From Rhizodiscina lignyota (taxonomy: Eukaryota): DNA of 64,000 nucleotides. A model generated the notes under the pieces. The model ran no database searches and had not been told where the DNA came from. It was given only the letters and a program-made list of their open reading frames with translations. The stretch lies in contig ML978125.1 of NCBI GenBank assembly GCA_010015805.1, positions 1,798,001-1,862,000 of the forward strand, written 5' to 3'. Made by a program: the position numbers and the translations under genes. Shown piece after piece: positions 11,643 through 51,619 of this stretch (positions are counted from its first letter, which is position 1; each line of letters begins with the position of its first letter).

Positions 11643-13305
11643 ATGTCGAGCTCCGAGTACAGCGCGGACGAAAAGCTGCCCTCAGACAAGGATCTGGAGA
11701 AGAATGTTGTGAATGTAGAAAAGAGGTCTGTGGATCTTGATAAGAGCTCCGTGGACTTGGAGAAAGGACCACCTCCAATTCTCGAGGATGTTGAGGGCAT
11801 CAGGGATGAGCCATTGGCCCGACATGAGACTGATGTCGCACATCTAATGAACCTCGGTGAGGGTATTGTGGGGTGGGACTCTCGACAGGACCCTCAAAAT
11901 CCACTGTGAGTGCAGCATAGCAGCACTGTGTGAGGTTCTGAAGCTGATGCTCTTGTTCAGCAACTGGCCAGCACCCAAGCGACGGATTGTGATGGCGCTC
12001 ATCAGCATGATCACGTTCTGCAGTCCTCTAGGCTCTTCCATTTTCGCCCCTGGAATTACATACACTATGGCTGAGCTTCACGAAACTTCACAAGCAATCG
12101 GATCCCTTATGATTACGATATATCTCCTCGGCTATGCACTTGGGCCGCTTTTCCTTTCACCGCTGAGCGAGATCTACGGCCGATATATCGTCATCGTAAT
12201 TTCTACATGGACCTTTAATGTATTCCTCTTGGGATGTGGCTTTGTGCACAGCATGCCAGGCTTGATAGTCCTGCGATTGCTAGCTGGGACTGGAGGCTCC
12301 GCTGTCATGGCAATTGCCCCGGCCATCGTGGCGGACCTGTACCATATCGAACGCCGAGGTTTTGCAATGGGCATAGTGTTCATCATACAATGCCTCAGCC
12401 CAGCTATTGGACCAATCTGTGGAGGGTTCATTGCCCAGCAACTTGGATGGCGATGGGCGTATTGGATCCTGCTGATAGCCAGTGGAGTTGTTACGACTAT
12501 CATAACATTTGTCATGCCAGAATGCTATGCTCCAACAGTTCTGGACCGAAAGACGAAGCGACTCAGAAAGGAACTTGGCCGGAACGATCTCCGCTCAGTC
12601 CTAGCCCTTCCAGTGACCAAGGGGGAGCTGATGAAACGGAGCCTCATCCGTCCGATGAAGCTTCTCACGAGGTCACCTATCGTATTCTTGTTTTCGCTCT
12701 ATGTGGCCACAATTTACGGCATGCTCTATCTGTGTTTCACAACGATACCATCGGTCTACTCTGACCAGTATGGATGGTCTATCGAGTTCACAGGCCTGGT
12801 CTACATCAGCTTTGGCATCGGCATGTTTTGTTCGCTGCTCGTCATCATGAAGACAAGTGATTCCACGATGATAAAGATGCGCAAGAAGAATGGTGGAGTC
12901 TTCGAACCCGAGATGCGCCTGCCATACACCATCTACTTCGCAGTTCTTACGGGGCCGGGACTGTTAGTCTACGGCTGGACAGCAGACAAACACGTGCACT
13001 GGATAGTTCCGATGTTGGGGCTGATACCTTTCGGTTTCGGGATGGTTGGCCTGTTCACCTCCTGCCAGACTTACATCGTCGATTCGTTCACGCGCTATGC
13101 GGCATCTGCCATAGCCGCAACGACGTGCCTGCGTTCACTCGTCGGTGCATTTCTTCCTTTTGCAGGACCTCCATTATTCGCGTCGCTGGGTCTTGGATGG
13201 GGTAATACTCTTCTGGGTGGGATTGCAATAATCATGTGTCCCTTACCAGTACTCTTCTACAAATATGGACGTATTGTACGGGAAAGATTTCCCGTAGAGC
13301 TGTAG
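11643..13305 (+). CDS. MFS drug:H+ antiporter (DHA1 family), one intron
   Basis: WDSRQDPQNPL/NWP, GPLFLSPLSEIYGR, GPICGGFI, LGWRWAYW, PEMRLP, YIVDSFTRYAASAIAA, LGLGWGNTLLG. Confidence 0.93.
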
Positions 13306-13334
13306 CGCTAGATCTTTATTAAATACTATCATTC
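13183..13334 (+). repeat. Left copy of an imperfect ~150-bp direct repeat (last ~40 codons, stop and proximal 3'UTR of the DHA1 gene)
   Basis: ctgggtcttggatgg...ttctacaaat..gg...ttgtacgg...gtagagct.tagcgctagatctt..t.aaa.act.t.attc recurs at 15250-15412. Confidence 0.9.
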
Positions 13335-13348
13335 AGGGAGATCATGAG

Positions 13349-14790
13349 ATGAACACAGGCAGCGATGATGAGGAGCTTGCAGATGTGCAGGGAGACGATG
13401 AGGTGGCTTGGACAGCGATGATGATGAGGAGCTTGTGTGGGGGGAAGAGATGCAAGAGCTTGGCCTCCCGGGTGATGAAGATGTGGGAGCATTCCCACCC
13501 CTGCCGTTGTGCCTCAGTCGAACAAGCGCCGAAGTGAAATAGATAGGTTCCTCGCACACGCCGACCCCTTTCTGGCCCTGTATCAAGAACTCGAGCACCG
13601 GATGCTCGTCCTTTTGCCGGCAGGCTCTACATCTCAACACCCGGTCCTTGGCGATGTTGTTAAGGCGCACACCCCGAAAGGCTTTGACGTTCTGCATCTA
13701 CTGCATGTGTCAGCCAAGCTACCTAGTCGCTGAGAGTGGAATAATGCCTGGCAACCTTCGATACTCGACGACCCCAGCTATACGATCAAGCAGTTGTTCC
13801 TCCGCATATTTTCGCAAATCGGCAAGGATTCTCGCCAGGCTGTTATGGACTTCATTTCAATGAAATTCTGGTATTTAACAGTGGAGGGCCGCCGGATTAA
13901 GGGCGATGCGATGTACTGGGCTTCTCCGTTCATCCAGGTGCTACAGTGGTTTCGCGAGACTTTTCTCGAGCTGGCAATTCGGCAGGGCTTGAAGACCATT
14001 ATTATCTATGGTTATTACGCTGCTGTCGGCATGCGCGAGTGGTGGCTGAGGAACCCACATCTCCACTCTCTGGTCGAGCTCCGGTTTGTTAAGCACCTCG
14101 AGTGGACTGGTCTTTGGGCGAACAAAGAACAGTTTCAGCACGAAATCAACTGAAGTCAATTGCGGCTGCCCTTGGAATCGCATGCGACACTGACTGGATG
14201 CGCCAGAGTCACAAACATGAGAAGGTCGCGCGACACGAGTTGGACATTCTTGTGAGGCGTCGAAAAAGCGCGTGGGCAAAGCAACGCGTACAGGACGAAC
14301 CAAAACGGCTACCGCGATCGGCAGAGAGCGCTGCGAAAGAACGCGTATGCGACGAACAAGGACGGATTCCGTGATCGCAAAAAGGCGTCGGAAAAGAAAG
14401 CCTATGCCAGCAACAAGAACGGACGTCGCGACAGGCAACTCGCAAAGCAGAACCATCAGTACCGCACGAACGAGGGCGGATTCCGCGACAAGGTCAATGC
14501 CGCGCGAAACCACGCCTACAAGACCAACGAGAACGGCGCGCGTGATAGGCACAAGGCTTCTTTCGAGGCGTCGTACTGGGACCTTGACACTGGCATCAGA
14601 GAGAAAAAGCTCGAACGGGGAAGAGACGACTACCATGAGAAGGCAGCAGATCAGGACTGGCTCGATGCCAAGAACGCCAAACGAGCTGCTGAGACCGCCG
14701 CCCGTGTTGCAGACAACATACCACAACAGGCTCTACGATTCTACGAACCTTGTGGGGTATGGATGTCAAGTTCCGCTCCTCAATGGCGTA
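13349..14790 (+). pseudogene. Copy 1 of the unassigned repeat/zinc-finger gene family; disabled
   Basis: DPFLALYQELEHRMLVLLP...KGFDVLHLLHVSAKLPSR*EWNNAWQPSILDDP, frameshift, then FLRIFSQIGKDSRQAVMDFISMKFWYLTVEGRRIKGDAMY, aligning with ORF 45549-46490. Six 19-aa repeats at 14283-14624, then ALRFYEPCGVW. In-frame TGA at 13731 and frameshifts. Confidence 0.85.
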
Positions 14791-15249
14791 CCCTCAGGAC
14801 AAGCCGCCGCGAGCCTCACGTCTGCTTTACCTGTTTGTTCTGTCACCTTCTGGCGTAAGCCTCGAAGTACAAGATTATACGCCAAACATCCGGGGCTATC
14901 GTTCGTCTCGTTAGTTATCGCCCCTAGTGTGTAGTGAATGTCGCTCAAGAGATTTTCGACTTCCTTGTTGCTTATTTCACTACTCTTGCAAAGCTCGAGC
15001 GCATGCAAAACGGCGCAGAGCCGTTTCTCCAGCGCCTGATAAAGGGCGAGGGAGGGGTCGGACTGAGTGAGGAGCTCGCCAACGACTGGGGATGGTGGCG
15101 GAGCTCGATCATCACAGGCTCCAAGCTGCTTCGTATCCGAATCCATACCATCAGTTCCATGCTCTTTTAACCAGACATCGTCTACCGGTTCATCGACGGG
15201 CTTATCCTCATCGTCGAAAATGGTAGTGTCGTCGACTTGGTCATCCTCA
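14766..15249 (-). pseudogene. Copy 4: truncated or chimeric family member sharing only the acidic N-terminus and first helix, convergent with copy 1
   Basis: VDDVWLKEHGTDGM...VGELLTQSDPSLALYQALEKRLCAVL versus copy 2 MEHLWLEQQDDDEM...VDEFMAQPDPFSALYEELERRMLALL. Confidence 0.65.
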
Positions 15250-15412
15250 TCACTGGGTCTTGGATGGGTTAACACTCTCCTGGGTTTCATTTGCATAATA
15301 CACATGCATATAATGTCTCCCTTACTAATTCTTTTCTACAAATTTGGAGGCGTTGTACGGCGAAATTCCCAGTAGAGCTTTAGCGCTAGATCTTCATCAA
15401 ACACTGTTATTC
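15250..15412 (+). repeat. Right copy of the direct repeat: degenerate duplicate of the DHA1 gene 3' end
   Basis: Translates as SLGLGWVNTLLGFICII..IMSPLLILFYKFGGVVR versus the intact SLGLGWGNTLLGGIAIIMCPLPVLFYKYGRIVR. It is followed by the same tagcgctagatctt. Confidence 0.9.
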
Positions 15413-19358: not shown

Positions 19359-20722
19359 ATGTCTCCTTCGAGTAAATTCATATACGCAACATTACCGGCT
19401 CTGGTCCTAGGGCAAACTTTTTCTGCTGGAGAAGTAATCCCTATTACGCTTGATGGTGGGTAAACGAACCAAAAAGTCAGAGGATAAGCAGGTACTAATA
19501 TTGTTTCAGGATACATCACTTCGATAACATTACCATACTGGAGCGGTGAGAGTGCAGCTGCGACTGCTCCGATAACTGTCACGCCCACGCCGGAAATTAT
19601 CTCTGGTGCTATCAACAGCGCTGCTTCAGCGGTATCGTCAATAGAGTCAGCGGCCAACTCTATCTTGTCAGGCTCTGCCAGCAGTAAGTTTATCTCCTCT
19701 AGAGACTCCGAATTTCTATCTGAGAATGTATAGGCCTCAGTCTCGCAACCATCGCTGTCTCAATCGTCGTCCCTGTCATACCATCAGCTACCTCTCGAGC
19801 ATCAACACTCACAACCCCATCAACAGCGCCAGTGGCAACAGCATCCACAGAACAGAGTGTGACTTCAGTGCCCAGTTCTACACCTCAATCCAATTCCGAA
19901 TCCGTGCAAAGCGCAACGGTTCCCGCTTCGACTCCGAGCAGTTCACCACAGCCTTCGACAACCAACGCACTTTCCGTTTTGATCTCAGCGTTCAGCGGTA
20001 CAACAACGGTCACATTCTCAACGACCTCTGGCGCAAGTTCTGAGACTTCCACTATCTCAACGACTGCCTCGTCTGGCGAGATCCCATCGAGCGTCGCATT
20101 CTCATATATCCCTCCACTTCCACCAGCATCATCCACAGGATCCGCATCGCCAACAGGATCTGCATCACCCTCAGAGTCCGCATCGCCCACAGGATCCACA
20201 ACACCATCAGGGTCCGCAACAACTTCAGAGTCTACATCACCCTCAGGATCCGCATCATCTTCTTCCGGGACGACTGTAATTGTGCCGGTACCAACGAGCC
20301 GGGAATCATCGATCCGCTCAAGCGCATCAAGTGTCGCATCATCCATCGCATCAGCGGTCTCATCGCACATATCGAGCCTGTCAAGCGAAATATCGAGCGC
20401 CACTGCTTCCGAAAGCAGTAGAGTATCGGGTGTTGAATCATCGGTTTCATCGAAGGTCTCTAGTATCGAATCGTCCGCAAGCAGCGTCGTCAGTGTGGCC
20501 AGCACCTTGGCAACCACGACGTCAAGCAGGGCTTCGACCTCTACAACAGCTTCTGGATCGAGTTCAAGCTCGTCCAGCTCAACCAGTACCATTGGCGCTT
20601 CTTCGGGCTCCGCGACGGCACCTGTCCCAACGGCATCGCCAGGAGCCGCAGGCCGAACTATGTCCAACGGCCTTGTCAGCGGTGGACTGATTGGGCTTGT
20701 GGTCGCCTGGCTGATTGCATAA
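19359..20722 (+). CDS. Ser/Thr-rich secreted, probably GPI-anchored cell-wall protein, with introns in the 5' part
   Basis: Signal-like MSPSSKFIYATLPALVLG, long S/T low-complexity ORF with (T/S)GSASP repeats, hydrophobic C-terminus GGLIGLVVAWLIA. Confidence 0.75.
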
Positions 20723-20926: not shown

Positions 20927-21127
20927 GACAAGAAGATTTAGGGCAGCTTTCAAGATACTGAACTTCTATGATCTATAGCCTCTACGCCGGATAAAGGGCA
21001 CGAGTTTTTTAAGGTCTGTTATTGTTATATACACTCTACAGAACGTAGAACTAACCTTTTTGAGATAGTCTTGCTAGCCTGAAAATACGAGAGCTGCTCG
21101 CCCGCCATTTATCTTATCACGCTCGAG
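20927..21127 (+). repeat. Dispersed non-coding repeat, diverged copy of 39627-39853
   Basis: Shared collinear blocks atagcctctac, gataaag, ttatatacac, agaacgtagaactaa, gaga.agtct, gag.tgctc and tcacgctcgag. Confidence 0.8.
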
Positions 21128-39586: not shown

Positions 39587-39627
39587 TCAATGAATACCAC
39601 GGTTCCGACCAAATCCAGGTTCCACCG
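39587..39627 (+). repeat. 41-bp perfect inverted repeat, partner at 46580-46620
   Basis: tcaatgaataccacggttccgaccaaatccaggttccaccg is the exact reverse complement of 46580-46620; the match ends sharply on both sides. Confidence 0.95.
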
Positions 39628-39872
39628 TGACTGAAAAGTTGGGCGTAGTTTTCAAAATAAAGAACCGCAATAACGGATAGCCTCTACAACTGATAAAGCG
39701 AACGAAGTTTTTAAGAGTATGCTATTCTTATATACACCCTAAAGAACGTAGAACTAAGCTTGCAGAGACAGTCTCACTTCCCTTGAAGTGCAAGAGTTGC
39801 TCCCCTTAGGCGTTACAGCTTGCCCGACAGCCAACAATTTCGTCACGCTCGAGACTGGCAAGGGGACGTTTC

Positions 39873-40887
39873 TCAAACGTGTTTGGAGAAGAAAGACACC
39901 AGCAAGCTATATCCGCGATAGTACTCGACCGTTATTCTGGGGTCATTGAAGTCGGCCCTTTCGTACTCGTCAGTCCGGCTCCACAACATTGTGGAAAGAA
40001 GACTCACTTCGAAGCCATCCACCCGTGAACCTGGTCATGAAACGTCTCCAGGAAACTCCCAGCTTTTAGGTCCGCGGCAAACTTCTTCATCAACTGAATC
40101 GCATTTGCCGTCAGAAAAGGGATGATTTCATTTCTGCACGAGAGGCTTACCTCCGGATCCTCCTCACCACTAGCCAGCACGGCCATTGGAATGTTGACAT
40201 TTTTCGCATCCTCCGCAACCATCAAAGAGGGATGGCACTGTGCCGCAGCTTTGAACAGCGACGTCTCAATCGCGAGAATCGTTACGACCTGTCACGCCGT
40301 ATCGTACTCCACGGTCAGCAAATCACGAACCAGCTTCTCAAATTCCAAAAAATCAACCCACCTTCCCACCCCAACAATGCCCCATAATCCCCCAGTCCGT
40401 CAGCCCAGGATTTTTTTCCTTGAGCTCTCTCACCAGGTTCGGAATCTGGTTTATCGTCTTCTCCGGCTTTGCCGGCCCATCAAAGTATGCCATGATGTAC
40501 GCGTGCTTCTCGGGCGTATCGGGCGGATACATTGCCAGGTCGGCTGCGCCGTCGCCGAACCAGTCGGGCATGAAGACGCGGAATTCATGCTTTGGATCGG
40601 CGTACGCGAGGATGTCGGCCCCCTGGATCGTCTGCGGGTACAGCCCGAAGATGTCGTAGATGAGGAGGATGGCCTTTGTGGCGGTTGCAGGGCCTGTTTG
40701 GTCTGTATGTTCTTAGTTAGAAAAGAGGGTATTGGAAGAAATTTATGAGATCTGGTCCAAGAAGCGAGCACAAAGAACGGTACGAACAAGTTTTGAGACC
40801 GGCATATTCGACGTATGTCCCTTTTGGCTCGTAGGATTTTACCTCAACGGGACCACGAGCGCAGCAGGCTGGGCTTGGTTCTGCCAT
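39873..40887 (-). CDS. Dienelactone hydrolase family protein, multi-exon
   Basis: MAEPSPACCARGP, AILLIYDIFGLYPQTIQGADIL, MPDWF, GIMGHCWGGK (Cys nucleophile), HPS, QVHGWMA. Confidence 0.92.
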
Positions 40888-41283
40888 GCTGATTGATACT
40901 ATGGATAGTATTTAGTCAGTTCGATGTTGTTAGAAGAAATCAAGTTTGATTAGTTCGTGCCGTGAAGGAAGGGAAGAGGAAGCCGAAGGACCCTGAAAAT
41001 GAAATTCAATGGAGCTATATACTTGACCACTATTTCGCCATATGATGTATTCCGATGTTGTCGTCCCTGTTCAAGACTTCAGTAATCAATATTGCGGGTG
41101 AAGCATGGGAGCGGCCTTTGCGGGATTGCGGCCGATTTGCCGCAATGTCGATCACTTTTATTAGAGGATCCAGCCCAACCCTATGTGAATCAACCTCACC
41201 CCCTCAACTCCAAAGACAAATTTCACGTCTGCGATGTCTATTTGCCCGTTGACTACAGGATTGTGACACCCTACATACTCTCA

Positions 41284-43209
41284 ATGCCGGCAAATGAAAA
41301 ACGTTCATCGCTTGCCTGCGCCTCTTGCAACTCCAAAAAGCGGAAGTGCGACAAGAAGCTACCCCGATGCTCTCTGTGCGACAGGTCAGTTACGAGTGCC
41401 AAGTTCTGCACATTCAGAGAGATACAGAAGGCCTAATACTATAACAGAAAGAAGTGGAAATGCAACTATGTTCGGTGAATCAGCTGCCCTTTCCGTATCT
41501 ATTCAATATGTCGCGTAGAAGGCTTATCCAAGTTGGACAGCTCTATCCCCGCGAGATACAGAGAAAACCAACCGTCCGACGACATCAAGACTCCGGATCG
41601 GCATCATGTTCAATCTTCGCACTTTGAAGCCGTCTACTTTCTCGATTCAAGCGTCTATTCTCAATCAAACGTTCAGCTTCCTCCAGCCGCAGCCTCCGTC
41701 CCCGTGCCTTCAATCATCGCCAGCACTGTAGGCGATTTCGTGGACGTTCGAGCAGTTGCAGATCCATACTTCGTATCTATCCACTGCTGGCTGCCGTTTA
41801 TATCCAAGAAGCGGTTCTATGAGCATCTGAACCCTTTATCACGGCCAACGCCTGACCGTCTGTTACTCTTCTTCTCTATGAGGCTGGTGCTTGATCCTCC
41901 TCCAATGGGTGAAGATCCCAAAACGTCCTCGTATCTGGCCGCCAAGTATTTACTTGTCGATCTTGAGGCTGCTGGGATTCCAACTGTAGAGACCCTTCAG
42001 GCTCTGATGCTGATAACGCTCTACGAAATCGGCCATGCTATCTATCCGGCGGCTTACATGTCTGTGAGCTTATGCGCAAGGATGGCAATCGCGCTGGGTA
42101 TGGACAAAGTGACGTTAGCTTCGTGTACTGAAATGCATGTACTTGAGTTTGAGAAGAGGAAGCGAATGTGGTGGACTGCTCTGTTGCTCGATCGGTATGG
42201 TGACCTATTCCTTCAACTCTCGTTTCACTTATTCACCCTCCCTCACATTTGTCCAATTTACCCTTTCCACTTATTTACTCTAGTGAAAGATCGATAAAAA
42301 ATGCATCTGCTAACTACCTATGATCACTGTCTTCAGCTATGTCAGTATCGGCTGTCCCGGTCGTCAACTTGCAACCAAAGGCCCAAAGCTGGACGATCCG
42401 CTTCCGGATGATGATAACTGGGATGCTTCTGTTCGGGTGCGTTTGAACTCCTTAATATATACAGGGAATTCTGACTATATTCCAGACACCTGCCGTTCAT
42501 AACCCGATGACTTTGGCTTCCGACTTGGAAATAAAAGTGTGCCCATTTGCTCGACTAGCGCAAGCAACCAATCTACTCGAACTCGTACTGAGCCACGTGG
42601 CCAGCGGAGGTGCGGATCCAAAGTATAGCGAAGAGGAGGTCTTACAGTTATCAAAGACGCTTATCGCCTTAGCAAAGCTCGCAGAGAGCGAGATGAATAA
42701 CTCAACCTCACCAGCCAATTGTTCGACTCAATCACTTTGCCGAAGGTAATACACCTCATCAACCGCATAGTAGTGGAGAAAACTAACCTTCACAGTGCAT
42801 TGTATGTCCTTCACCAGCACTACTTATCTGAATCCGAAAAAGATGCCGCAATGTCGCCAACCTATTGCGAACACGCGGAGAGATGCCTAGTAGAGTGTTC
42901 CGAGGATACTCTATCACACCTGCGCTCCCTCTTGAAGAATGACACGAACGGCCCAAATATGGTTCCACTATTGTCATTACCTTCTTTGTATCAAGCGGCT
43001 GTCGTTCAGACTCGACTATTCAGGAAGAGTGAAGATGAAGATATTCAGAAATCAGTAGGCTTTTTGAAGGCTACCTTGAAGGCTAAGCGTCAACAATGGA
43101 GGGTTGCAGGTAATGCTGTGCGTTGCTTCGAGTGATGCATTGACTGACAAACTGTGTAGAGACGTATTTACGAATGCTCGAGGCCCGAGAAGTTATGGAA
43201 TTCTTATAA
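41284..43209 (+). CDS. Zn2Cys6 transcription factor with a Fungal_trans domain, multi-exon
   Basis: LACASCNSKKRKCDKKLPRCSLC; YFVSIHCWLPFISKKRF; LQALMLITLYEIGHAIYPAAY; KRKRMWWTALLLDR; PFARLAQA. Confidence 0.9.
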
Positions 43210-43269
43210 CATTTTCGAGACATGTACAGACGTCGACGTGGTATACCACCACTTGAGTAGGATAATGCC

Positions 43270-44180
43270 GATATTGCGATGTAAAGACGAAGGAGGCGGA
43301 GAAGCGGAGAAGCAAAGCCGAGGGAGCTGAAGTCGTTCGAGTTGAGAGGACTTCATCGAAAGGTTGCCAGAGGTCGTCGACGGTCTTTAGGCATCCCAAT
43401 CGATACCAATTTGTAACCTCTATTCGCCTGCCCCACCTTGTTCAGATTCTCCTGGCATGATTTGCTGCCCCGGTGCTCTGGAATTCGATACGGCTTTATT
43501 CTCGCCCTACACGCGGAACAAGGCGCGAACTTCGCTAGCCTCTCAGCACGAGTCTTGTGCATCTTTCAATTGATGTGGCGGCTCCACTTGTGGTTCACAC
43601 TGGGCATCCAAGTTCCACAAGGGGCGCAAAACCTCAAGATGTCTCGTGGCGTGTTTGTTGCAACGCGTTCGGCGGCGGCGTTAAAATTTCTGGCACGCCT
43701 CTCCGCGATATAGTCTTGATCATTTTTGAGCTCGTTGTGGTAGCGGTCCCGTCCTTTTTCGAGCTCCTTTTCCCTGAAGCCGTTGTCGAGGTCCCACCAC
43801 TTCTCCTTCAAGGCAACCCTCTTCTTATCTCGGTACCCATTGACGTTGTTGTCCAATCGGTGCTGTACAGCAGCTCTTGCTCGATCAGTGTGGCCATTCG
43901 TATTCTGGTACTGTTGATTTTATGCAGCTCCTACCCGATCGCGCCATCCGTTGATGTTGTTCCGGTATGCTCGGTTTGCCAATTCAGGCCGTACTTCTTC
44001 CTGGCCGCGCTCTTCTTGTGCTGACGCTTCTCTTCGCCAACTTGTGTGAATATGTGTAGGAGCAACCGCTTAATGGTATAGGCTGGATCCCTGAGGGTTG
44101 ACGGTTGCTACGCGTGATTCCACTCCTCTAGATTCAGAAATTTTCTGGAAATGTATTTAATCAGCTCGAATGCCCTCTAC
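43270..44180 (-). pseudogene. Copy 3 of the unassigned family; internally deleted, with premature stops
   Basis: KFLNLEEWNHA*QPSTLRDPAYTIKRLLLHIFTQVGEEKRQ joins directly to the repeat region (NNVNGYRDK...WWDLDNGFREK), then TPRDILRFCAPCGTW..KWSRHIN*KMH and PCSACRAR...EHRGSKSC. Confidence 0.85.
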
Positions 44181-44300
44181 TCTCCGGGCCTCTGCATCCT
44201 TCAATTCACATGCTTTACAGCTTATATCACGAACAGTTCACTGTTTTGCTTATATATACATGATACTTGTTCGATAGCAAATGCTATGGAGAGAGCAAGT

Positions 44301-44490
44301 AAAACGCTTCTAATGGCCTACCATCCATAGATAGGAAGAATAAAGATCCCATTAGCAAAATCAGGCAAGGCTCGTGCTAGAGGATAGTATCAACATAAAT
44401 AAAGCGCTTCTGATGACCCATCACCCATAGATGGTAAGAAGCATCCTATCAGCAAAATCTGGCAAGGCCCGCCACAGAGACAAAATATAC
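44301..44490. repeat. Two diverged tandem copies of a ~100-bp unit between family copies 2 and 3
   Basis: aaa.cgcttct.atg.cc...ccatagat...agcaaaatc.ggcaaggc begins at both 44301 and 44401. Confidence 0.8.
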
Positions 44491-44494
44491 CACC

Positions 44495-44670
44495 GCAGAA
44501 ACCGAAGAAGTAAAATCCGAGAGAGTAGAAGAGCCGAAGTGCTCCGAAGTAAAAAGACTGCCGAAGGGTTACGAACTGTTATCTCTAAGTATGCTGACGT
44601 TGCGACGTGAGAGGATGACGGAGGCGGAAACCGAAGAAGTAAAATCCGAGAGAGCAGAAGAGTCGAAGTG
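44495..44670. repeat. 47-bp direct repeat (44495-44541 and 44624-44670), 44/47 identical
   Basis: gc[a/g]gaaaccgaagaagtaaaatccgagagag[t/c]agaagag[c/t]cgaagtg. Confidence 0.9.
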
Positions 44671-44695
44671 TAAGATCGAGAATACGCTATTGTGT

Positions 44696-46490
44696 TCAAG
44701 CATCACAAGCATCATCGATCTTGTGGCCATTGCTTGCTTGGACCGCTTTATTCTGGATCAGCTTGCACGTCTTGGTGCCTTCATGTGCCTTCATGCCGGC
44801 CCGCGGCATCCTCGCTCCGCACGACTTGCAAGGGATGTAGTCTTGCGGCTTTTTGACACGCTCGGTATGCATCTTTGAATCCGTGTGTCTGGTCCACTTA
44901 TTCGCCGTCCTGATCGTCCAAATCCCATAGGGAGCACAGAATCTTAAGGCGTCTCGTGGTGTATTAGTTCGAAGGCGTTTGGCGACTTCTTCATCGCGTT
45001 TCTCCTTCCGCTTTGCGAGCCATTCTTCGTCGTTCTTCAAGACCTCCTCGTAGCGTTCGTGTTCGCGAGCCTTGTGCTTGTCGGGGGCACCATTCACATT
45101 GTTGTGGTAGCGGTTGCTAGCATAAGCGAATTGCTGATCCCGGAAGCCATTGACGTTGTTGTGGTAGCGGTTGAATTGATAAGACCTCGTCGTATCGCAG
45201 GCCCCATCCACATTGTCCTGGTAGCGGTCGCGTGCATAAACCAATAGCCGATCCCGAAAGCCATTGACGTTGTTCTGGTAGCGGTTCAGTTGAAAAGCTC
45301 TCTCCCTATCACGCCAGCCATTGACATTATTCTGGTACGCGTTCTTCTTCCACCGGTTTTGGTAGGCCCGTTTCTCGGCCCAGGTCTGCTTCGGGCGTCG
45401 TGGACGCTTCACTGCAATCTGTCGCTCGACCACAGGGACCTATTTCTTTTCCTTCTTCCTGCCCCCTTGAAGCAGCCAATCGGTCTCGCACGCGATCCCA
45501 AGTGAATCGGCAATTGTATTTAAAAGCTTGATATTGCGATCAAACTCTTTACTTCTCGCGTTTTACCAGGCGATGCAAATGCGAGTTCCTGAGCCACCAC
45601 TCCCGCATCCCGATGCCAGCGTGGTAGCCGTATACGATTATTACTTTCAATCCATTTCGAATAGCTAGCTCTAAGAACATTTCTCTGAACCACTGTAGGA
45701 TCGGCATAAACGGCGAGTCTCGGTACATCGCGTCACCCTTAATTCGACGGCCTTTCGCTGTCAAATACCAGAATTTCATTGAAATGAAATCCACAACAGC
45801 CTGGCGCTTGTCCTTGCCAACTTGAGTGAATATGCGTAGGAACCGCTTGATAGTATAGGCCGGATCCTCCAGGATTGATGGTTGCCACGCCCGATTCCAT
45901 TCCCCTCGGTTTGGAAATTTCCCGGAGACATGGAACATATGCAAGGCGTCGAAGCCTTTAGGAGGGGTGTAAGCCTTCACGATGTCGCCGATGGGCGAGT
46001 GTTGGGATGATGCCGCCGTCTCTGGTAAAAGCGCGAGCATGCGTCGCTCGAGTTCTTCGTACAGTGCGGAGAATGGGTCTGGCTGTGCCATGAACTCATC
46101 GACTGAAATCTGAGGCTCCATGCTTCGTGCTTCATCGGTGTTGTCCAGAGCCATCTCGTCATCATCCTGCTGTTCCAGCCACAAATGCTCCATGCTTGGC
46201 GGTTCATCGCCGAAGGGATCATCATCTTCATCAAGTGTATTTCCGCCGACTGCACCGTCTTCGAGTTCACTGGCTTCGAGTTCATCAGCTTCGAGTTCAT
46301 CAGCTTCAGGTTCATCGGCTTCAGGTTCATCGGCTTCGAGTTCATCGGCTTCGAGTTCATCGGCGTCACTGCAGACAGACTCCAGATCCTCGCACTCAGA
46401 GGCTTCTTCGGGCAAGGGCTCGGTGTGGGTGAAATCGATGGAAGCCTCCTGAGCTGTGCGAGTCGAAGACTCTGCTTCCATTGTGCTCAT
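44696..46490 (-). CDS. Copy 2 (most complete) of the unassigned family: acidic N-terminus, putative UDG-like domain, five 19-aa repeats, two zinc fingers; either spliced or frameshifted between its two ORFs
   Basis: ORFs 45549-46490 (313 aa) and 44696-45433 (245 aa) are collinear with copies 1 and 3. A GT..AG gap at 45440-45566 would join them in frame (555 aa). Confidence 0.6.
46260..46364 (-). repeat. Seven tandem 15-bp units encoding ADELE/ADEPE
   Basis: ttc[ga/ag]gttca[t/c][c/t][a/g]gc repeated 7 times within the acidic N-terminus of copy 2. Confidence 0.95.
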
Positions 46491-46543
46491 AGTAAGATAA
46501 GGTATTGAAAGATCGCGTGAATGTTGAAAAGATGGAGTGCAGT

Positions 46544-48943
46544 TCAGAGAGTACAGAGTGCAGTTGGGAGTATGGTGTGCGGTGGAACCTGGATTTGGTC
46601 GGAACCGTGGTATTCATTGAGGAGCTCCTTAACCCTGTACTCGGTGCTCCAGCCAGTATCTAATTGTATGTCCCGAAGCAGCTGGATCACCGGTTTTCGT
46701 TCCTGGCCTCCCTCTAAGCATTGTCCTGCTAGATAGAGTGGTTGGATCAAGTTAATGCGAGCTGCGGCATGAGGTCGCCCATTTGCGATTCCGCAAATTT
46801 CGCGGCAGTCGGCTTCGACGTTCTTCATAAGATCCCGATATTCGCGCAGCTGGATTATAGGATTGCCGTGTGGACGATTTGGTCGATTCAAAAGTATCAG
46901 GACATTGGCAAAGTGGTAGTGGGCCATCATGGCGGCATGGTCCGGCCGGCTGAAGATAAGCTCAGGGAAAACCGAGTCTGGTGCCATGAAGAGGGAGCTG
47001 AATTAACTTGATGTATCAAGCCTGCCATAAGGTTCAAAGGTTGACGGAAGTTGGCTCCGCCATTCTCCCAAAAGCGTTGATAGTCGAGCCCACTCCGATG
47101 ACATTGAGCCTTGCACATCTTGGTTAGGACCGGTGAATCCAGATGCCGAACTCTCTCTTCGACTAACAGCTAAAAGGCTCACAACAGATGATAAGATCCA
47201 TATGAGGCTCCTTGAAAACAGAACAGATTGCTCGAGAGCCTTCAGTCCGCGAGTTTTGCAGTTGTGCAGAGCGATTAGGCTGAATGCTCCGCTCCCATCA
47301 AATGCAAGTCCAGCCGCTTGCCATAACTGGGTATCGTCAGGAGAGATGTGAGTTGTCGTTCTGCGAATAAACGCGGTGAGGTAATCCTGGCGGGCAAAAT
47401 TCCAAAAGCATGCGTGCTGTGATTCACAGAAAGTCGGGAGCAGTACAGACGCATCGCTGTCATTCGGGTACCTTCCCTTAAGCGTCTCTCTTAGAGCTTG
47501 TAATATACCAGATATCCGTCTGGGACTTGTAAGCAAATCTCAGTCCTCGAGTCTTGGAGAGGCAATTGCGCAGGAGATATCGCGAGTCCTCGATGTCAGT
47601 GAAGAGTTAAAAGGGGAGAACATACTGGAAGTAATGCCTATCGGATGAATCGAGACTCTCATATATATGGAGGATAGACGTAGCGATAAGAACATAATCG
47701 GAAACTTCAGATGCAGATCCGGAGAATAGTTGGCCGCTTCGTACAGCCTGATCTAAACGGCTGCGTTCATCTCGTCCAAGTGTACGGTGATCGGCATGAG
47801 GCTGGAAAACCTCATATAGGGGGAGCAATTCTTTCAGGTTTTCCAAAGCTTGGTGATAATAGTTAGCCGCTTTATAAGACCAGTTTACATCCACCGAGTT
47901 GGGATAGATTTCGGATGATGCTGGAACTCTGCACAAGCCGCCTCCGCTAATTGCTCTGATTCCACCCACAAGTCCCAGCTGCTTCGCGGCAACCGCAATA
48001 GCTGCATATTTTATCGCCGCATGGTTACATGAAGCAGTCAGAACACAGGATCCGAACAAAGTCCCAGGGCTAAATAGATCAACCCTGTCCATAGTTAGCG
48101 TATTGCAGAGTACAACATTAGCTATGGAAACATACCATGGTGCAATGTTGTCGGCGAAATGGCGAAGTAGAAAGAGAATCCCTTGTTCTGATTCAAGCAT
48201 GAACTCAGAAAAGAACTCATGGAATGAGGTATCGATGTTGCTACCAATTAGACTTGTGGTGCTCACATCGCTCCCTGTTAGGCGGAACGACCTGGAAAGC
48301 GGACTTTGAGAGATTCCAGAGGAAGGAGCGCCTTGACTATCGGAGAGAGTAGAATCAAGTGCGTGATTTATGGGATCTGTCCCACTGTTTGTGTCGAATG
48401 TAGATGCGCCAGATGCCGTGGGCTCTTGCGTTGTCCCAGCATCCGGTCGAGCTGATTCAGTGGGTGAAGTATTGCTCGAAGGCAAACCCTGCGTAGGTGC
48501 AAGCGATGGGATTGAACTTTGGTCTTGGATGAGGGGTGCGCTTCCTGGCATAGGGACGCCAATTGACGGATTCGATGTAATTGCTGCTTTTGTAGCCGTT
48601 GCACGCCCGAGTTGAAAGGTTATCCGCTTCAGGCGATTAGCTCCATTCTACCACAGAACAAACCACACCAGCTCAAACTTACACCAGTAGAAAACCCACT
48701 GTTCGACCTCTTCTGGATTTTCTTTTGTAGCCGTGCTCCTTCATCGACAAATTTGAGGCCATCGGCATAGCCTGGGCACTCTAGCTTCAGGCTTGCACAT
48801 CGCCCACAACCGGGTCGACGTTCGTCACACTGCATGTTAATAACAAATTAATAACTTCATAGCGGTGCTGGATGAGGTCCACCAACCTTCAAATGACGGT
48901 TTCTACAGCGCTGGCAAGCCTGTAGAGAAGACGAGGCGGGCAT
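46544..48943 (-). CDS. Zn2Cys6 transcription factor (Fungal_trans_2/ArcA-like), multi-exon
   Basis: MPASSSLQACQRCRNRHLK/CDERRPGCGRCASLKLECPGY; LLRHFADNIAPW; FWNFARQDYLTAF; MAHYHFANVL; INLIQPLYLAGQCL; DTGWSTEYRVKEL. Confidence 0.9.
46580..46620 (-). repeat. 41-bp inverted-repeat partner lying inside the last codons of the TF gene
   Basis: Encodes (L)NEYHGSDQIQVPP on the minus strand; exact reverse complement of 39587-39627. Confidence 0.95.
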
Positions 48944-49445: not shown

Positions 49446-51619
49446 ATGGCTGTCACGACTTCTGGACCTAATGCCTGCGAGACATGCCGGTCCATTCTCG
49501 CAGACAAAGACCTCCTCAAACGTGCTCGGTCCGAGGAAGGCTTGAACTTTGAAGTCAGTCGCGAATGCTTTCAGGACTCTGTACAGCGAGGCTGTGGTAT
49601 ATGCTCTACCTTCCATGAGATGGCAAACCAAGGTAGTTTGGCAGAAATCAGAGCTCAGGGCCTCTTTGACCCTGAGGAGCTCGACGGACTTGACGAGGAA
49701 GATTTTGAATCAATGGAAGCGTTTCGCGTGCTTGATGCTGCTGGCCAGCCTCTGCCTGCCAAAGCGTCTCTGCCAGGTCGACTGGTCAGAAACATCCATG
49801 CGGAAGTCATGCCTGGAAGAGCTAAGTTTGACATTACATCTTTGAGGATCGCCGCGTGGTCCGCAGAGAATCGGTACCATCTCGATGTTGAATTTGACGC
49901 CTGTGCCGTTGAAGGTATTGTTGGCTTTCACTTCCGCAGTTCAAAGTAACCAGACATGATGCTAATGGAAGACTTCTGCCAGGAGGCCTCGCTGCGAGAT
50001 ATGTCAGAACACGTCCGCTAAATCCATTTGTCTCCTCCGCGAGTAGCTTTGCCATGGTAAGAAAGTGGGTGTCAGACTGCGTTAATTCGCATGCACACTG
50101 CCCAAAGCCGAAGCAATCTCTCCCGTCTCGACTAATACTCATCGAGAGCGAAGACAGTATGGCATCTTACCGTATCGTTAGTACTGAGAAGATTGGCCAG
50201 GTATCCTACGCTGCATTGAGCTACGTTTGGGGCGGACCTCAACCCGTCATGCTCACTCAAGCCAATATCCCTGTCATGACCAGCCATATCGACAGTGCAT
50301 CGCTTCCGAAGACTGTGCTTGACGCTCTTCATACAACACGGAATCTTGGCCTGCAATATCTCTGGGTCGATGCTCTTTGCATAATTCAGGATTTAGAGGC
50401 CGATAAGAACCACGAGATTGCTCGTATGGACGAGATATACCACAGCGCGTATGTGACCATTTGCGCCGCTAGCGCTTCCAGCTGCCGAGCTGGGTTTCTG
50501 GAAGACAAGTCCCAGGAATTCCCGGGTGTCCCTGCTCGGCCTGTATCTCACATCATTTTCCCTTGTCCAGATGGAAGGTTGGGTGAGATTCAACTCACGC
50601 CGACGCGGACTTACGATCCAATTATGGAACCACTCAACAGCCGCGCATGGTGTTTCCAAGAACGCCTGCTCTCGCCAAGGGTCTTGACGTATGGATCGTG
50701 GCAGATGTACTGGCAGTGCCAGACGATGCAGGCTTGTGATGGTGGAGATGTGAGCAGATTTGAGCAGGCAGGAACGGAGAGAATGTCGATGTTCGCTTTT
50801 GATGAAGCGAATAAGGTCGAAGCAGACGCCACAGGTTCGGTGCAGGCACTTTACAGCAACTGGATTGGCCTAATTCAGGAATACAATCTTCGAAACATTA
50901 CGGATCCACAAGATCGACTGCCTGCGCTTGCTGGTATAGCGAAGAAGTACGCCCAGGCCCTTGCAGATGATGATTATTGTGCAGGACTGTGGAAGTCACA
51001 GCTTCTGCCGACGCTTGCATGGCAAAATGGAGATGCAAAGCCGTCGCGGCCGGAACAATATCGTGCACCGACCTGGTCTTGGGTGTCAGTCGACGGAGAG
51101 CTATTCTGGCCTGACGATGCGCAGGTTATGGAGTCATGGATGGCGAAAGATGTTGAGATCCTCGATTGCCACATCACGCCATTATCCGCAGATGTCCCTT
51201 TTGGCAGGGTCAAAGATGCGTCGCTGACAATTAAGGCTTGGACAAAGACCGTGATATGGGATGGACGCGTACATACTGCGCAAGGCATTGAAGGATACGA
51301 AATGGCCCTCGATATTCTTCCCCTAGAGTGGGAAGATCAAGAACCAGGTGAAGATGAGATGGATGCTATTCTTGGAAGAGACAGAACGGATCTGAAGTAT
51401 CAGATTCCGGTAACATATACCGAGTTTACTGCTGATGGGGAGCGAGTGATGCCAATCACCCTGATGAGGATTACAGATATTGCGGCGCTCATACTCGAGA
51501 AAGACGCAGAGCACACTCACAGGAGGTTGGGTCTGGCAGTATTCCAGTCGCCGGACGGTTCAGATGACGCTGATGCTTATTTCAGCGATGGACAGGTGCA
51601 AACTTTGGTCATCCTGTAG
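49446..51619 (+). CDS. HET-domain (heterokaryon incompatibility) protein, one intron
   Basis: WVSDCVNSHAHC, LPSRLI, YAALSYVWG, LPKTVLDA, YLWVDALCIIQD, EIARMDEIY, LNSRAWCFQERLLSPR, DRLPALAGIA, YCAGLW, YRAPTWSW. Confidence 0.95.

Follow-up and report, generated by a model that had tools for sequence, protein, structure and literature searches.

The window analyzed in this study, a stretch of 64,000 nucleotides from the fungus Rhizodiscina lignyota, contains an array of 19-aa repeats in which a scaffold of six residues is kept while all other positions vary. A sequence-only reading of this DNA had proposed a modular, basic repeat that reads nucleic acids in the manner of TALE or PPR proteins, with the variable residues setting the target. 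The question raised by the locus is what such an array does in the gene that carries it. The reading preferred here, at about even odds (roughly 0.5), is that the window holds decayed copies of a modular, probably selfish gene acting on nucleic acids, in which the repeats would serve as a sequence-tolerant helical tether.

Gene architecture and broken copies

Rhizodiscina lignyota is a dothideomycete that lives as a wood saprobe. Fungal domains (MFS, HET, fungal transcription-factor, and RCC1) were found by a Pfam scan of 32 of the 171 long frames in the window, and the repeat frame of copy 2 was 100% identical to part of P0001, a public 555-aa model from this species. The repeats are a single module of one larger, rare fungal gene, which runs from an acidic tail through an alpha/beta domain of approximately 200 aa, the 19-aa repeats, and a long helix to two zinc-finger motifs. 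Three paralogous copies of the gene and one fragment (fragment 4) were identified in the window, every one of them broken:

13349 to 13553, plus strand: acidic low-complexity N-terminal region of copy 1, with frame breaks
13554 to 14224, plus strand: predicted UDG/SMUG-like domain of copy 1, interrupted by a TGA in frame (13731-13733) and by a frame break near 14150
14283 to 14624, plus strand: repeats of copy 1, six 19-aa (57-bp) units, net charge +17
14625 to 14858, plus strand: degenerate capping unit, long helix, and eroded, truncated zinc-finger region of copy 1
15003 to 15248, minus strand: fragment 4, acidic tail and first helix of the predicted UDG-like domain, converging with copy 1
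43410 to 43748, minus strand: helix and fingers of copy 3
43749 to 43973, minus strand: repeats of copy 3, four damaged units, one with a stop and one of 18 aa
44021 to 44161, minus strand: remnant of the predicted UDG-like domain of copy 3, followed by a large internal deletion
44696 to 45058, minus strand: long helix and fingers 1 and 2 of copy 2
45059 to 45343, minus strand: repeats of copy 2, five 19-aa units and a truncated leading stub
45449 to 46088, minus strand: predicted UDG/SMUG-like domain of copy 2, with a stop at 45551-45549 and the last helix in another frame
46089 to 46490, minus strand: acidic N-terminal region of copy 2, with a 15-bp tandem repeat

Damage had earlier been ascribed to copy 3 alone, yet copy 1 is broken too: a frame break lies directly ahead of its unit 1, its array is contained in the stop-to-stop frame 14256-14858 (+), and no complete zinc-finger motif was found in it. 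In copy 2, an in-frame TAG (45442-45440) lies upstream of the repeats, finger 1 (44938-44867) has a Tyr as its second ligand in place of the lost cysteine, and finger 2 (C-x2-C-x12-H-x5-C) ends at 44765. The finger motifs are common to copies 2 and 3; those of copy 3 comprise a C2H2-type finger 1 (43628-43557, C-x2-C-x14-H-x5-H) that holds a stop and a C2HC finger 2 (43520-43455). Fragment 4 was identified by tblastn (E 2e-4) and by blastn (71% over 69 nt). A further partial copy occurs on another contig in the gene model P0003, downstream of a Med20 sequence; this model, which joins Med20, an acidic stretch, and a partial UDG-like domain, probably merges two neighboring genes.

The breaks in copies 2 and 3 were reproduced in a contig from run X1 (39598-46609), with 0 differences and 0 gaps over 7012 nt. 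The comparison covers these two copies, and X1 is a separate assembly, yet may be the window's own source. The identity of this contig indicates that more than one assembly carries these breaks.

The array had also been described as hidden, which does not hold, as the public gene models P0002 and P0001 already splice into the repeat arrays. In P0001, a continuous 555-aa product is obtained via a 127-nt GT..AG intron (45566-45440). The introns that bypass the breaks have different boundaries in the two paralogues, and the skipped sequence, read in a different frame, encodes a segment whose conservation extends to copy 1 (pN 0.26, pS 0.77, 25 codons). Because this stretch is conserved as protein in another frame, the annotated introns are read as artefacts.

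These gene models bear on the possibility of an ordinary, lineage-specific host gene family, such as a DNA-repair or chromatin reader evolving by birth and death, in which copy 2 may be expressed via the 127-nt intron. The continuous product of P0001 is consistent with such a family, as are the lack of a RIP signature (by dinucleotide indices, none of the three copies departs from the window average) and the finding of neither a transposase nor element termini. The explanation is nevertheless rather doubtful, given the skipped stretch that is conserved in another frame and the unequal intron boundaries of the two paralogues. Just three distant relatives, of the domain, were found among 1.84 billion representatives, and the gaps ahead of copies 1 and 2 (43 and 53 bp) are too small for a separate upstream promoter.

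The 19-aa repeat array

The exact 57-bp (19-aa) units, six of them at 14283-14624, were borne out by translation and by pattern counts against shuffled sequences. A two-unit DNA pattern gave five matches in the window and none in 100 shuffles, and a one-unit protein motif gave 11 matches, none of them outside the three copies, where 50 shuffles averaged 0.08. The earlier counts of five units in copy 2 (to which a truncated stub is added here) and four damaged units in copy 3 also stood, as did the conserved scaffold: among 14 full-length units, G9 was kept in all 14, Y3, N6, R11, and D12 in 12 each, and N8 in 10. At scaffold codons, pN was 0.17 and pS 0.85 (546 codon pairs), and the array is therefore taken as a once-selected protein repeat. 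Judged by these codons, the scaffold evolved under purifying selection in the past.

All 13 non-scaffold positions are variable (entropy 1.5-2.9 bits), and none of the position pairs is conspicuous as a specificity di-residue. Their pN was 0.40 between position-matched units, 0.58 over all unit pairs (pS 0.63), and 0.32 against a pS of 0.21 in a recent duplication within copy 2, the last of these over 26 codons only. The claim that the variable positions outpace the upstream domain holds, but the non-repeat C-terminal region of helix and fingers is equally divergent (pN 0.37-0.40; identity 34-41%). By these substitution rates, it appears that the whole C-terminal half simply evolves faster, and that variation at the repeat positions is not special.

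The first units of the different copies share six of six scaffold residues and four to five of the 13 variable ones. In copies 1 and 3, the last units, marked by W-D-L-D, cluster together with a support of 100. Units 2 and 4 of copy 2 are 86% identical in DNA, the product of a recent 114-bp duplication, which also accounts for a 114-bp period seen in copy 2 alone. Unit number thus shifts by in-register duplication and loss. Copy 2 has also been hit in its scaffold, with R11 changed to C and to P.

The description of the repeat as basic applies to copy 1, with a net charge of +17 over 114 aa, but copy 2 is weakly basic (+5 over 95 aa). Neither a known repeat family nor a plain coiled coil was recognized. 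No Pfam family matched the repeat-bearing frames, P0001, or P0002, and PHROG and NCBIfam likewise gave no useful match. A heptad coiled coil was rejected for lack of a 3.5-residue hydrophobic periodicity: the power at 3.5 was 16 in copy 1 (maximum 101) and 29 in copy 2 (maximum 71). The residues I, L, M, V, and F make up 8% of the repeats in copy 1 and 15% in copy 2.

The structure of the C-terminal half was predicted without DNA by AF2 from a shallow alignment of four rows (mean pLDDT 58, pTM 0.25). In this model the array is helical, with one helix per unit (residues 25-41, 44-60, 66-79, and 86-99) broken around the N-x-N-G stretch, but the helices do not pack against each other or form a solenoid. 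The units continue straight into a 40-residue helix (model residues 104-144). Fold searches with the model returned generic long helices and non-significant zinc-finger rows; no solenoid was among the matches listed, an absence that does not exclude solenoids of the TALE/PPR type.

The base-reading hypothesis holds that each 19-aa unit, or each 38-aa pair, reads one or a few bases. The window gene shares with TALE, PPR, PUF, OPR, and mTERF proteins a series of tandem helical repeats with a conserved scaffold, variable positions, and a variable number of units. Units of the TALE/PPR type measure about 30-38 aa, whereas those of the window are 19 aa long, form one predicted helix each, number four to six, and have no solenoid match. 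PUF-, TALE-, and PPR-type proteins are described, in the available part of the source, as solenoids of antiparallel helices (PMC8998825). The exact unit length with its strongly conserved scaffold, the different unit numbers of the paralogues, and the adjacency to a nucleic-acid-enzyme-like fold and to zinc fingers would all suit base reading. The same applies to the excess of pN over pS at variable positions of the recent copy-2 duplication (26 codons only), and a shallow-alignment AF2 model can miss packing that depends on nucleic acid. The hypothesis is improbable even so: the single helix in each unit, the lack of any hairpin or solenoid in the model or among the fold matches listed, the variation of all 13 non-scaffold positions with no prominent di-residue, and a divergence in matched units equal to that of the non-repeat C-terminus depart from a TALE/PPR-like code. 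Four to six units would also imply a short target, and the mutated R11 residues of copy 2 fit decay.

Another explanation is that the repeats are a mere helical spacer, or a protein-interaction or localization segment, that sets how far the fingers stand from the domain and does not itself touch nucleic acid. The direct passage of the units into the 40-residue helix, the nearly neutral charge of copy 2, the almost unconstrained variable positions (pN 0.58 and pS 0.63 over all unit pairs), and the recovery of generic long helices only among the fold-search matches listed are in line with this explanation. A spacer would have no need of a near-invariant Y, N, G, R, and D in each unit, and neither the absence of a heptad signal nor the net +17 of copy 1 favors it. 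It is considered possible, at odds well below even.

Head domain, known systems, and relatives

The head domain was modeled by AF2 on copy 2 without its last helix, using six alignment rows (pLDDT 61, pTM 0.66). When 48,161 solved chains were searched independently of Foldseek, UDG-family titles accounted for 13 of the 50 matches listed, including ranks 2-6, with a best Z of 5.4; ranks 1 and 11 are presumably UDG-fold structures too. In a second structural comparison, ranks 1-43 of the 50 rows listed belonged to the UDG superfamily, many of them near-duplicate entries. The best match was SMUG1 (Z 6.7, rmsd 4.7, 143 aligned), and the best non-UDG fold had a Z of 4.3. Structures of the superfamily were aligned over 113-150 residues of the predicted domain, and all UDG matches lay below a Z of 8, a range in which, according to the structure-comparison tool, a match may mean merely a common arrangement.

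Foldseek alone returned no match at E < 0.001. Sequence comparisons gave no corresponding signal, and Pfam returned no UDG match for the head domain. Against 26 bacterial UDG sequences drawn from 31 loci, the hhalign probability was at most 1.3% (1.8% for a reversed control), and hmmsearch did not rise above shuffled controls. The one exception in these profile and HMM tests was a global-mode score against family 4 (12.6, with a shuffle maximum of 9.9), aligned in a register inconsistent with the fold. Motif A/B sequences of UDGs include GQDPY/HPSPLS, GINPG, GMNPG, GE(A/G)PG, and GLAPA in the accessible portion of PMC5449639; of the motifs listed there for families 1-5 and BdiUng, none was present in copies 1 and 2 or in the distant relatives P0004-P0006. 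By eye, the domain elements follow the UDG order, with D-P-[SA], a second strand, and a hydrophobic strand ending in G. The three distant relatives have a W-S-P strand end, and copy 1 and P0006 have a His after the last strand.

On the structural ranking, the head domain likely has a UDG-like fold, with catalysis putative. The superfamily spans a range of substrates, as far as the excerpt of PMC8307549 goes. The window gene resembles its members (SMUG1, family 4/UdgX, family 5, and BdiUng) in the predicted alpha/beta domain, which ranked them above other folds, and differs in its fusion to repeats and zinc fingers and in having no motif A/B, Pfam, or profile signal. Between copies 1 and 2, the domain shows an identity of 64-79%, a pN of 0.15, and a pS of 0.74 (171 codons), with synonymous sites near saturation; the copies are therefore taken as old paralogues that were once functional.

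The homing endonucleases I-TevI, I-BmoI, and I-HmuI share the arrangement in which a domain of catalytic type precedes short helical repeats and small DNA-binding modules. For example, I-BmoI carries three predicted NUMOD3 minor-groove repeats as anchor and tether, according to the part of PMC3664794 consulted. The window gene differs in its UDG-like head and its location outside introns, and no copy had a Pfam match to NUMOD3, GIY-YIG, or HNH. Similarly, the spacings C-x2-C-x14-H-x5-H (copy 3) and C-x2-C-x12-H-x5-C resemble those of Matrin/U1/JAZ- and UBZ-type fingers. Foldseek rows for the C-terminal model were mostly zinc fingers (JAZ, UBZ, U11-48K, and Stc1), none of them significant (E at least 1.8), and a zf-met cluster was a weak structural match of the C-terminal half; no significant Pfam or Foldseek match to the window fingers was obtained. 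They differ from known zinc fingers in the missing cysteine of finger 1 in copy 2, the stop in copy 3, and the incomplete copy 1. By analogy with these systems, a modular nucleic-acid enzyme with a helical arm and fingers would be a known kind of design.

A phmmer search of 1.84 billion representatives returned seven matches (P0001-P0007). Three of these (P0001, P0002, and P0003) are from the same species, and P0004-P0006 are distant, domain-only relatives (identity 27-30%, E 8e-9 to 7e-7). P0007 was rejected as a relative, as its match was to the acidic tail only and compositional. In length-limited, word-indexed protein searches, P0001 was the sole match to each of the copy-2 repeat frame, the P0001 N domain, and profile A2. 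No locus related to profile A2 was found in viral contigs, none related to P0005 in metagenomes, and none matching the domain profile A5 in 301 bacterial genomes, a search run without a positive control. Phages and plasmids gave no match, PHROGs, NCBIfam, PADLOC, and PDB sequences gave no useful match, and nothing in a viral fold library was significant. The ESM Atlas yielded no usable match for the head domain and, for the C-terminal half, small unnamed clusters at 0.90-0.91 that are leads only.

Pattern searches for the repeat itself returned candidates that were set aside. The two-unit DNA pattern matched no viral, four metagenome, and six genome loci, all ten of which were RGG-type, Gly/Arg-rich tails of bacterial proteins. 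A looser three-unit pattern matched four viral loci (L042-L045), of which three were scored on the unit profile, the protein of L042 being identical to that of L044. L044, which has a weak HNH match, was rejected because 20 of 300 shuffles scored as high; L045 (DUF7487) had no score; and L043 scored 7.5 bits, a circular result for a pattern-selected sequence. Basic YxxN-type repeats were observed ahead of DUF7487 in L045 (1459-2142, with a 19-aa period) and ahead of the weak HNH match in L044 (1213-2043). Because the viral YxxN repeats beside nucleases fail the unit profile, the homing-endonuclease parallel is treated as an analogy only.

Across the protein, phage, viral, metagenome, and genome searches, no relative of the repeat was found outside the Rhizodiscina lignyota genome, and neither the repeat nor the domain architecture came up in any library or search tried. 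A literature search, which left subscription papers mostly outside its reach, found no description of the 19-aa repeat, of its gene architecture, or of a UDG-like selfish gene in fungi. The repeat is apparently undescribed.

Genomic setting and proposed mechanism

A same-strand MFS transporter gene reaches its stop codon 43 bp before the first ATG of copy 1, and the ATG of copy 2 lies 53 bp past the stop of an unnamed upstream frame, also on the same strand. Both settings include duplicated host sequence:

13176 to 13334, plus strand: MFS gene, 3' end, left-hand member of a diverged pair of direct duplicates
15243 to 15412, plus strand: right-hand member of the MFS 3'-end pair, matching at 76% over 164 nt
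39587 to 39627, plus strand: perfect 41-bp inverted copy of upstream-gene coding sequence, left bracket of a 7-kb block
46580 to 46620, minus strand: matching 41 bp, here within the final frame of the gene that precedes copy 2 and 90 bp ahead of the ATG of copy 2

The MFS 3'-end duplicates enclose copy 1 and fragment 4, and the 7-kb block between the 41-bp inverted pair holds copies 2 and 3. Contigs of X1 break at this pair, and the orientation of the block rests on the window assembly. The pair is host coding sequence and not a clear TIR, and it looks like an inversion breakpoint with templated duplication. The copies, which are old, showed neither terminal repeats nor a short target duplication, and neither a transposase nor poly(A) was observed at them (32 of the 171 long frames were scanned). 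The duplications are rearrangement scars that fit a break-repair insertion and also chance in a rearranged region.

Several other features were observed in the surroundings. The left-arm 41 bp run directly into a TGA, and either end could be the original terminus of the upstream gene. A dispersed repeat of approximately 220 bp (39628-39853 and 20933-21127, two copies that are 75% identical) starts right at the left 41-bp arm, and up to 15 other X1 contigs share a variant on it. A pyrimidine-rich stretch of approximately 80 bp lies 3' of the stops in copies 2 (~44670-44590) and 3 (~43345-43265) on the minus strand; it is partly duplicated again at 44495-44541 and could be the 3' end of an element. 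Between copies 2 and 3 lies a diverged pair of 78-bp direct repeats (44297-44471). Additionally, an 18-bp coding tandem repeat of about seven copies (20109-20257) occurs in a 332-aa frame without a Pfam match, a HET-domain gene (49913-51619) is located approximately 3.4 kb from the copy-2 start, and no tRNA or Rfam match was obtained within the window.

Since the repeats lie between the UDG-like fold and the two finger motifs, nucleic-acid binding by the repeats is plausible. Under the preferred reading of a helical tether, each unit would be one short helix, interrupted at the conserved N-x-N-G and prolonged by R-D, and the array would be a jointed, mostly basic arm; both features come from the low-confidence model. 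Arm and fingers together may keep the UDG-like head anchored to DNA or to a DNA/RNA duplex, mainly through backbone or groove contacts with limited sequence preference, much as NUMOD3 helices hold the domains of homing endonucleases, a likeness of design and not of descent. Unit number would drift through in-register slippage, as shown for copy 2. The gene probably spread as a selfish or mobile passenger, as suggested by its several copies, patchy occurrence, and uniform decay, and by the start of two copies about 50 bp past a host stop beside duplicated host 3' ends.

A bolder reading is very improbable. It describes a fungal selfish element in which a base-excision domain of the UDG/SMUG fold replaces the nuclease and is aimed by the 19-aa single-helix array and the zinc fingers. 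Abasic sites or breaks would be made near host stop codons, repair would then place a copy of the gene directly downstream of host genes, insertion would leave duplicated host 3' ends, and the repeats would act as a compact targeting module open to re-programming.

The evidence base, one genome holding three copies, all broken, plus two fragments, together with three distant, domain-only relatives, makes the finding a lead and not a discovery. If true, the UDG superfamily would gain a new layout, in which a UDG-like fold is tethered to zinc fingers and to an arm of helical repeats. If the gene spread via base excision, it would represent a new kind of selfish gene, and if the repeats read bases, they would constitute a very small programmable binder.
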